Shown in pieces: positions 3,457 to 3,543 of a stretch of DNA of 10,106 nt (the first letter of the stretch is position 1; each line of letters begins with the position of its first letter). Source of the DNA: a virus (Duplodnaviria > Heunggongvirae > Uroviricota > Caudoviricetes); IMG/VR virus record IMGVR_UViG_2737471839_000009; one strand, written 5' to 3'. Under the pieces are notes generated by a model. The model was not told the origin of the DNA. It did no database searches and was given only the letters and a program-made list of their open reading frames with translations. Made by a program: the position numbers and the translations under genes.

Positions 3457-3473
3457 AATGCTGTTTCTCCGGA

Positions 3474-3495
3474 CAGCCCCTGCGGGGCTGTTTTT
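3474..3495 (+). terminator. Putative plus-strand (antisense-direction) intrinsic terminator
   Basis: Plus strand CAGCCCC-TGC-GGGGCTG followed by TTTTT (3474..3495): a 7-bp GC-rich stem, 3-nt loop and T5 tract. It would terminate transcripts running antisense to the late operon. Confidence 0.4.
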
Positions 3496-3502
3496 CAGGC
3501 AT

Positions 3503-3521
3503 AAAAAAAGCCCTTTCGGGC
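3503..3521 (-). terminator. Putative intrinsic terminator/attenuator or RNA-stabilising hairpin immediately after the capsid gene (minus-strand orientation)
   Basis: Minus-strand RNA would read GCCC-GAAA-GGGC followed by UUUUUUU (plus strand AAAAAAA GCCC TTTC GGGC at 3503..3521): a 4-bp GC stem with a GAAA tetraloop and a U7 tract, about 25 nt downstream of the capsid stop codon (3544). Confidence 0.4.
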
Positions 3522-3543
3522 AGTGATTGTGATAACGCGGTTA

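Follow-up and report, generated by a model that had tools for sequence, protein, structure and literature searches.

A conserved pair of hairpins, predicted to act as coding-strand RNA, between the capsid and cement genes of a lambdoid prophage late operon

The stretch of DNA analysed here (the window) is a 10,106-nucleotide (nt) sequence from a virus of the class Caudoviricetes, IMG/VR record IMGVR_UViG_2737471839_000009, and carries on its minus strand the late operon, consisting of head and tail genes, of a lambdoid prophage resembling VT1-Sakai. Within this operon, the gene for a fusion of a ClpP-like prohead protease with the major capsid protein is followed by the gene for a capsid cement protein, and the noncoding gap between them contains two hairpins. 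A sequence-only reading of the window had proposed that these hairpins are terminator-like on opposite strands. Comparison with relatives indicates that both are conserved as RNA structures of the coding strand.

The capsid-cement gap and its hairpins

The capsid fusion gene (3544..5760 as an open reading frame (ORF), minus strand, stop codon TGA at 3546-3544) matches the Pfam families CLP_protease (2.5e-36) and Phage_capsid_4 (9.3e-56) and takes its name from the Prokaryotic Genome Annotation Pipeline entries in Escherichia coli genomes. The cement gene (3130..3456, minus strand, 108 amino acids, start codon 3456-3454) matches Phage_cement_2 (PF09956, 9.2e-20) and is called 'capsid cement protein' or 'DUF2190 family protein' in its sources. 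The gap of 87 nt claimed after the capsid gene is exact from the coordinates of these two minus-strand ORFs (3457-3543), and it is, as was also claimed, the only sizeable gap of the operon. The further statement that all other junctions overlap or are shorter than 20 nt does not quite hold, since the remaining junctions of the window overlap or measure 2-15 nt with the exception of one of 26 nt, between the G-like (615..1046) and T-like (184..588) ORFs, which are annotated as lambda-like G and T in the database records. That junction is no true gap, because T is made by a frameshift there.

Along the messenger RNA (mRNA), the capsid stop codon is followed by a 22-nt spacer (3522..3543, minus strand) and then by hairpin 1 (hp1; 3510..3521, minus strand), in which an all-GC stem of 4 bp, GCCC (3521-3518) and GGGC (3513-3510), carries a GAAA tetraloop of the GNRA type (3517-3514). 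A tract of seven U residues (U7; 3503..3509, minus strand) begins 0 nt after this stem and is followed by the linker AUGCCUGAAAA (3492..3502, minus strand), for which the alignment A2 and the conservation profile described below give the consensus AU-R-Y-C-U-R-A-A-W-Y. Hairpin 2 (hp2; 3473..3491, minus strand), recognized by its fold and covariation, is ACAGCCCC-GCA-GGGGCUGU with 8 bp; on the plus strand it reads CAGCCCC-TGC-GGGGCTG (3474-3490), with A3473 and T3491 extending the stem, and then T5 at 3491-3495. Two nucleotides (CC) separate hp2 from the Shine-Dalgarno (SD) sequence GGAG of the cement gene (3467..3470, minus strand), which lies 10 nt before the ATG and is invariant in alignment A2. 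Both hairpins had been described from the letters of the window in just these terms, the first as terminator-like on the coding strand with U7 and the second on the opposite strand with T5, just upstream of the cement SD; the former description is borne out by sequence and fold and the latter by the window sequence.

Fold energies on both strands had been suggested as a check. In the sense orientation, that of the mRNA, hp1 reaches -7.9 kcal/mol in a 29-nt piece (3496-3524) and -6.7 kcal/mol with 4 nt of 5' flank, while hp2 reaches -14.8 kcal/mol in sense and -16.2 kcal/mol in antisense. The z-scores against shuffled sequences are about -2 (-1.8 for hp1, -2.1 for hp2, and -2.2 in sense and -1.7 in antisense for a fold of 121 nt). 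Such single-sequence scores are modest, yet the conservation and covariation found in relatives show that the hairpins are not due to chance. A consensus terminator scan of the window listed neither of them, hp1 because its 4-bp stem falls under the 5-bp minimum of the scan, and hp2 because its stem can lengthen by G-T pairs into its own T-run. The same scan returned 20 sites in the window compared with 9.3 +/- 3.3 in shuffled sequences, nearly all within coding sequence and on both strands.

By sequence definition, hp1 with U7 is a minimal intrinsic-terminator motif, in which a GC-rich stem-loop is joined to a U-tract in the range of about 7-9 nt, the stem being at the low end of the usual range. 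It also stands past the capsid stop codon, at 22 nt in the window, far enough to fold behind the ribosome.

Conservation of the element among relatives

Relatives were gathered with the cement protein as a first query and an alignment of 27 diverse homologues as a second, which yielded 160 loci from viral and genome collections whose upstream sequence was read. In Enterobacterales that have the cement gene immediately after the capsid gene, the intervening gap measures 80-92 nt and has a single shared layout, namely a spacer of 20-30 nt, GCCC-N4-GGGC, U7, the linker, an hp2 of 5-10 bp, 0-3 nt, GGAG, 6-10 nt, and ATG. This layout is seen in Kluyvera, Enterobacter, Klebsiella, Erwinia, Rahnella, Yokenella, Citrobacter, Providencia, Proteus, Morganella, Sodalis, Pantoea, and Edwardsiella, the cement proteins of which share 47-68% identity with that of the window; the 37 non-identical elements that were aligned come from E. 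coli and from each of these genera apart from Citrobacter. Absence of the hairpins from close homologues had been named as grounds for rejecting them; they are instead kept across relatives.

The first hairpin and its U-tract are retained in all 37 elements. The stem of hp1 is identical in 36 of them, one G-C pair having changed to G·U, and pairing is preserved in 100% of the aligned cells, while the loop is free to vary (GAAA, GUAA, GUCA, AUCA, UUAA, UAAU, UGAU, UUAU, UAAC, UGAC, and GGAA). Among 22 elements measured, the tract is U7 in 19, U8 in two, and U5 in one; among 69 near-identical copies of the E. coli type, it is U7 in 67 and U6 in two, and neither the stem nor the loop of hp1 varies at all. 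In a conservation profile over 20 relatives, the stretch from hp1 through U7 to the linker has an identity of 0.84, equal to the best coding stretches and with U7 at its centre, and is the most conserved noncoding stretch of the neighbourhood. The stretch from the SD to the ATG has an identity of 0.32; values at the 5' end of the cement gene are inflated here, as the N-terminal peptide of its product served to retrieve the loci. The post-stop spacer is the least conserved part of the region (identity 0.24-0.40), and its distance from the stop codon to the hp1 stem remains at 20-30 nt with a median of 22 (22 Enterobacterales elements), so that this spacer is constrained in length and unconstrained in sequence. 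Strong purifying selection bears on hp1 and U7 themselves and, in the spacer, on distance.

The second hairpin is conserved in a different manner. Its stem differs between lineages, with at least 10 sequences seen (CAGCCCC, CGGCCCC, CCGGCC, CGCCCC, CUGGCU, CCGGUGC, CAGGCUUC, CGGCACC, CCGGUC, and GGCCUCUC), with pairing retained. Because the MAFFT alignment A2 is partly out of register in hp2, its pair counts are too low, and a model-fitted alignment (A4) and per-sequence folds were used. In A4, the counts of which lean towards structure and which is itself partly out of register, 7 of 9 pairs have changed on both sides and the covariation score is 0.240, compared with 0.149 +/- 0.012 for shuffles, none of 500 of which scored as high, and with 0.156 for the best slid control. 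Independent folds of the segment from the linker to GGAG gave a hairpin of -9.7 to -19.9 kcal/mol in 30 of 30 A2 sequences, and hp2 folded alone has 5-10 bp and -5.2 to -18.3 kcal/mol in 39 unique elements, in 38 of which it ends 0-3 nt before GGAG (one outlier lies at 6 nt). Comparative evidence of this kind shows structural selection on hp2, for stability, in a position fixed relative to the SD. The 69 near-identical copies vary only at a loop base of a further hairpin (hp0, described below), in the U-run (two copies), in an A-run (six copies), at three hp2 loop positions, and at one base past the SD, and neither the hp2 stem nor the SD contains a variable site. The hp2 loop itself (3481-3483, with homologous positions in loci L003-L081) is hypervariable (GCA, ACA, ACU, CCG, GUC, CGG, and 4-nt forms) beside 16 constant stem bases, which could reflect neutral drift in a free loop or mutagenesis of the quasi-palindrome type.

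Other arrangements are seen elsewhere. Pasteurellaceae, with cement proteins of 37-40% identity, have a stem of 7-11 bp, ACCGCAC(U)...(A)GUGCGGU, followed by U6 and a similar A-rich leader, and have no hp2. Two sense terminators stand in tandem in two Enterobacteriaceae, Citrobacter youngae and Scandinavium; Microbulbifer, one metagenome-assembled genome (MAG) of Vibrio, and MAGs of Rickettsiales have a single hairpin with a U-run; taxa of high GC content often have a hairpin without a U-run; and three loci have a gap of 4-17 nt and no hairpin. When one uniform test was applied to 50 representative capsid-cement junctions from many bacterial families, 32 of them showed a hairpin with a T-run in the sense orientation.

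A third hairpin of the region, hp0 (GAUAAC-CGC-GUUAUC; 3531..3545, minus strand), was absent from the sequence-only reading and appears in both the minimum-free-energy and centroid folds, where it overlaps the capsid stop codon (3544-3546). It is restricted to copies of the E. coli type and not found in divergent relatives, and its sole polymorphic site is loop position 3537, with C in 56 and A in 13 of the 69 near-identical copies. Between hp0 and hp1 lies a short unpaired stretch, ACAAUCACU. A small RNA (sRNA) usually consists of a stem-loop, then an unpaired stretch and a terminator, here with U7, and the segment hp0, ACAAUCACU, hp1, and U7 (approximately 44 nt) might be released as a trans-acting, Hfq-binding sRNA from the 3' untranslated region; prophage late regions of enterohaemorrhagic and enteropathogenic E. 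coli do encode Hfq-bound sRNAs, including HnrS and PasB. This origin is nevertheless highly improbable, as the candidate seed and hp0 are not conserved beyond the E. coli clade, the 20-30 nt before hp1 being the least conserved of the region, and an Rfam 15 search over 3200-3800 gave no family match, its two chance-level matches (E 1.3 and 2.7) both lying in coding region. PasB maps in antisense orientation to a 240-nt gap separating the tail genes I and J in a related prophage of E2348/69 (NC_011601 1466261-1466343, minus strand; locus L164, 4262-4344), and its probe is absent from the window; PasA, PasC, and PasD are located close to Q and to the gene for the holin. Reports of HnrS place it in Sp9, Sp10, and Sp12; the closest Sakai match of the window is the VT1-Sakai record AP000400, which we take to be Sp15, and the element does not appear to be HnrS. 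The I-J gap that holds PasB is another conserved noncoding gap of these late operons, outside the window.

Functional strand and proposed role

The two strands of a hairpin are not equivalent when G·U pairs are present, as these become A·C mismatches on the opposite strand. Among the 39 unique elements, internal pairs of this kind in hp2 favour the mRNA strand in 10 instances and the reverse in 1. In stability, hp2 is stronger in sense in 23 elements, weaker in 4, and equal in 12, the sense advantage reaching 5-6 kcal/mol in Proteus, Providencia, and Citrobacter, and hp1 is stronger in sense in 34 of 39 and weaker in 4. Loop motifs that exist only in the sense orientation are also present, GNRA mainly in hp1 and UUCG, in some cases as C(UUCG)G, in hp2 of Proteus and Providencia. 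The G·U asymmetry, the fold energies, and the sense-only loops together show that hp1 and hp2 have been selected as RNA on the mRNA strand.

This outcome bears directly on the idea of convergent terminators, according to which hp1 with U7 stops or attenuates sense transcription and hp2 with T5 stops antisense polymerase before it enters the capsid gene. In favour of such a reading, hp2 on the plus strand of the window is a perfect hairpin of 8-10 bp followed by T5, at the -16.2 kcal/mol given above, and the conserved A-rich linker 5' of hp2 becomes a T-rich stretch in antisense. A bidirectional terminator would be expected to keep its antisense T-tract and to show no strand bias in pairing, and neither is found. 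The T5 of the window reads GTTTCAGG, ATTTTAGG, or AATTCAG in relatives, leaving 3-4 interrupted T residues; only 6 of the 50 junctions, and 5 of the 18 from Enterobacterales, pass the uniform test in antisense; and the sense-only G·U pairs cost the antisense hairpin up to the 5-6 kcal/mol noted above. The UUCG and GNRA loops are formed in sense only, the position of hp2 is locked to the SD, and the Pasteurellaceae relatives lack hp2 altogether. A conserved antisense gene was not found across the junctions of the relatives, where stop-free antisense frames extend over 60-139 codons; the antisense ORF of the window at 3073-3504 (143 amino acids) is considered spurious, and the hairpin would fall inside it. 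The claim that hp2 blocks antisense transcription is accordingly not favoured and is probably wrong, and the convergent arrangement as a whole is decidedly unlikely. In this particular phage hp2 could still be an incidental stop for antisense polymerase, which is not what conservation has kept.

The near-invariance of U7, the zero distance between stem and tract, and the conservation of the spacer in length only argue for co-transcriptional termination, or for another function that depends on the U-tract, over a hairpin that merely stabilises. A ribosome at a stop codon represses a terminator almost completely at short distance and variably at 17-18 bp, and termination reaches its maximum past 27-30 nt (PMC4824070). 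With 20-30 nt from stop codon to stem, the element falls within the range in which the stop-codon ribosome ceases to repress. These features support hp1 with U7 as a putative weak sense terminator or former of 3' ends.

On this basis, the element can be tentatively understood as a composite, cis-acting part of the late mRNA, in which hp1 with U7 is a terminator and hp2 a stabiliser and neighbour of the cement ribosome-binding site (RBS). Situated 22 nt beyond the capsid stop, hp1 would be free to fold behind the terminating ribosome and would generate RNA 3' ends at approximately 3503-3509 for any polymerase that is not fully terminator-resistant. Its targets would be transcription not modified by Q, for example stray transcripts made in lysogens, and perhaps some of the late transcription. 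In the mRNA that reads through, hp2 may form a barrier to 3'-to-5' exonucleases entering from the cement and tail genes, shielding the head mRNA upstream, and may provide a fixed structural context for the adjoining cement RBS. As a net effect, the terminase-portal-capsid mRNA upstream would become independent, in its amount or lifetime, of the cement and tail mRNA downstream. The composite role is held with about even confidence. The original suggestion of a partial terminator or 3' stabiliser that raises capsid mRNA stands in part, as the terminator anatomy of hp1 with U7, its conservation, and its recurrence at 32 of 50 junctions make a role in setting or stabilising capsid-proximal 3' ends reasonable, with caveats arising from Q antitermination and from the copy number of the cement protein.

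Several considerations weigh against the composite role. Polymerase modified by Q reads through terminators, and even ordinary polymerase would meet a weak obstacle in a stem of 4 bp. Lambda late mRNA was reportedly found by Sampson et al. in 1988 to be roughly equimolar, the ratios of the proteins being determined at translation initiation. As a rule, cement proteins are required at a copy number like that of the capsid protein, and attenuation just before the cement gene is therefore not obviously useful. The conserved linker and the distance of 0-3 nt between hp2 and the SD are accounted for by neither of the two proposed functions, and the computed accessibility of the SD is variable, spanning 0.03-0.81 and responding little to replacement of the 3' arm of hp2. 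Late transcription in lambdoid phages of the Shiga toxin (Stx) type is, moreover, dependent on Q antitermination (PMC8022706; PMC7547250).

Alternatively, hp1 with U7 could be a safeguard of the silent prophage, stopping only non-Q polymerase, so that spurious transcripts begun inside the head genes would not reach the genes downstream, and being irrelevant in lytic growth. This agrees with Q antitermination and with the strict requirement for the U-tract, and is among the two options offered for terminators within the late operons of phages L and P22 (PMC8022706). It leaves unexplained why the site is constantly right after the capsid gene across many phage and host families, why a minimal 4-bp stem is retained in place of a strong terminator, and why hp2 and the linker are conserved, and it is regarded as a possible but unlikely explanation.

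A further alternative is that the element serves expression of the cement gene. The late mRNA would be cut in the AU-rich linker, hp2 would be a 5' stabiliser or insulator presenting the cement RBS, and hp1 with U7 would merely end the upstream fragment. The end of hp2 within 0-3 nt of GGAG in 38 of 39 elements fits this well, as does the conserved, A/U-rich, single-stranded linker between the hairpins. In Pasteurellaceae the A-rich leader runs straight into the SD without hp2, which therefore looks like an insertion that keeps its flanks adjacent. RNase E sites typically have U at +2, which the window linker CUGAAAAAC lacks; a transcript cut in the linker would begin with several unpaired nucleotides and would be poorly protected at its 5' end; the wide range of SD accessibility and its small response to replacement of the hp2 3' arm also count against this scheme; and the invariance of U7 is left unexplained. 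Such a module is rather unlikely.

A related and more speculative possibility is that hp1, U7, the linker, and hp2 form a single dedicated regulatory RNA of this head-gene family, in place of a generic terminator beside a generic hairpin, such as an attenuator that senses translation. A ribosome finishing the capsid gene 20-30 nt upstream would set how often the 4-bp terminator folds, while hp2 and the linker (AURYCURAA) would together expose the cement RBS or hide part of it, through pairing of YC with the GG of GGAG. A linker-SD helix of 2-3 bp of this type can be formed in every sequence, with both sides invariant and the register shifting. If this were true, translation of the capsid gene would control how far the cement and tail genes are expressed, Q antitermination of the operon notwithstanding; the possibility is considered quite unlikely.

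Comparable structures exist in other phages and bacteria. In lambda, the gap between D and E contains GGCCGC-CUGU-GCGGCU with U7, 19 nt past the D stop codon (J02459 6080-6134; locus L163, 1081-1135), and the gap between E and FI contains AUGGCCC-UUCG-GGGCCAU, a U-rich stretch, and then the GGAGG of FI (J02459 7161-7201; L163, 2162-2202). The two systems share the type of operon, the position at the shell genes, and sense-strand hairpins inside a Q-antiterminated operon. They have no sequence homology, and the terminator-like stem of lambda has 6-9 bp rather than 4, the hairpin after E lies 12 nt rather than 0-3 nt from the SD, and the two hairpins occupy separate gaps because the gene order is decoration and then capsid. 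No demonstrated function is known for these two lambda hairpins. At the end of the procapsid module of phages L and P22, a Rho-independent terminator is predicted, within a late operon that is antiterminated and has a single promoter (PMC8022706). According to the same report, terminators of this sort are not unique and have no known role; they might terminate partially or stop transcription that lacks antitermination (PMC8022706). The terminator motif there likewise lies just past the capsid-assembly genes; the head module is of the P22 type, the terminator is an in-silico prediction, and neither a second hairpin adjoining an RBS nor a comparative analysis is reported.

Leaky terminators are better established where other polymerases are involved. 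Phage T7 has T-phi after the capsid gene 10, and phiX174 has terminators after J, F, G, and H. Weak terminators with read-through that balance phage operons have been measured in T7 and in the Pseudomonas phage LUZ7 (PMC9163698). The common feature is a leaky terminator after a highly expressed capsid gene that balances transcripts; in those phages, however, transcription is by phage or ordinary host polymerases, not by Q-modified polymerase, and termination was measured, whereas at the capsid-cement element it is predicted. Intercistronic stabiliser hairpins, such as the malE-malF repetitive extragenic palindromic (REP) sequence and those of papB-papA and puf, shield the upstream segment from 3' exonucleases and so create unequal mRNA levels within an operon. 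They resemble hp2 in that it is selected for stability alone and its loop is free; hp2 differs in being single-copy, in having a terminator motif directly before it, and in abutting the next RBS, and a role in decay is suggested for it by analogy.

Terminator-like hairpins have been noticed repeatedly in antiterminated lambdoid late operons, and the present element is a well-conserved case of this known kind, with no new mechanism indicated. It is unusually clean, with a sharp conserved core, a clear functional strand, and a covarying second hairpin, and is therefore a good substrate for choosing among attenuation, stabilisation of capsid mRNA, silencing in lysogens, and organisation of the next RBS. 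In engineering of these head modules, the element should be kept intact.

The surrounding operon and further observations

The gap also marks a junction at which genes can be inserted. In two prophages of Morganella psychrotolerans (locus L101, 772-1370, and L104), a pair encoding a MazE antitoxin and a PemK-MazF toxin (Pfam 8.8e-12 and 2.4e-19) precedes the cement gene in the region that holds the capsid-cement gap in related prophages, ahead of a longer terminator hairpin and then the same U7-AUGCCUGAAAA leader, and a capsid ORF was not found in the 1.5 kb upstream at this locus. The capsid-cement junction thus appears to be a place at which additional genes (morons) are inserted. In four Pasteurellaceae loci (L111, L117, L124, and L125), a small ORF, apparently hydrophobic as judged by eye, is present upstream of position 1501, with no terminator gap.

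Several other candidates at the site were examined and set aside. A dispersed repeat is not indicated, as the covariance model R1 finds one site in the window (75 bits; the next match has 12.7 bits, E 0.13) and one strong match per locus. A small ORF starting from the AUG at 3502-3500 has no SD, and its ATG is ATA in relatives. A switch between terminator and antiterminator was considered because GGGCU of the hp1 3' arm can pair with AGCCC of the hp2 5' arm in the window; the same pairing is not available with CCGGUGC, CUGGCU, or GGCCUCUC of relatives. A sigma-70 promoter in the region of the T7 run and linker was rejected by inspection, as the -10-like TATACC or TATGCC lacks the final T and has no -35, and a consensus scan was blank.

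The remainder of the window follows the gene order terminase, W, portal, protease-capsid fusion, cement, FII-like (a head-tail protein of the Gifsy-2 family), Z, U, and V, as read from the ORF list, Pfam matches, and record annotations. The genes for the small terminase and the large terminase (7224-9347, minus strand) come first, a W-like gene lies between these and the portal gene (minus strand), and the lambda-family portal gene occupies 5513-7015 (minus strand). The protease-capsid ORF was delimited mechanically and runs 248 nt into the end of the portal gene (5513-5760), and its real start is probably further downstream; the start annotated in the ASU11 record still leaves an overlap of approximately 150 nt.

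The late regions of VT1-Sakai, CP-1639, ASU11, and several Stx2 phages are 97.5-98% identical to the window. Of 5,426 complete E. coli genomes, 530 carry the same junction, taken as 241 bp, at a total of 752 places, late regions of Stx phages included. Every row listed is flanked by genes named 'ClpP-like prohead protease/major capsid protein fusion protein' and 'DUF2190 family protein', and none of these rows carries an RNA feature annotation at the junction. In the VT1-Sakai record (AP000400 24347-25656; locus L001, 7652-8961), the insertion sequence IS629 interrupts the protease-capsid fusion gene, so that the copy of the head module there is probably defective, and the copy in the window is intact.

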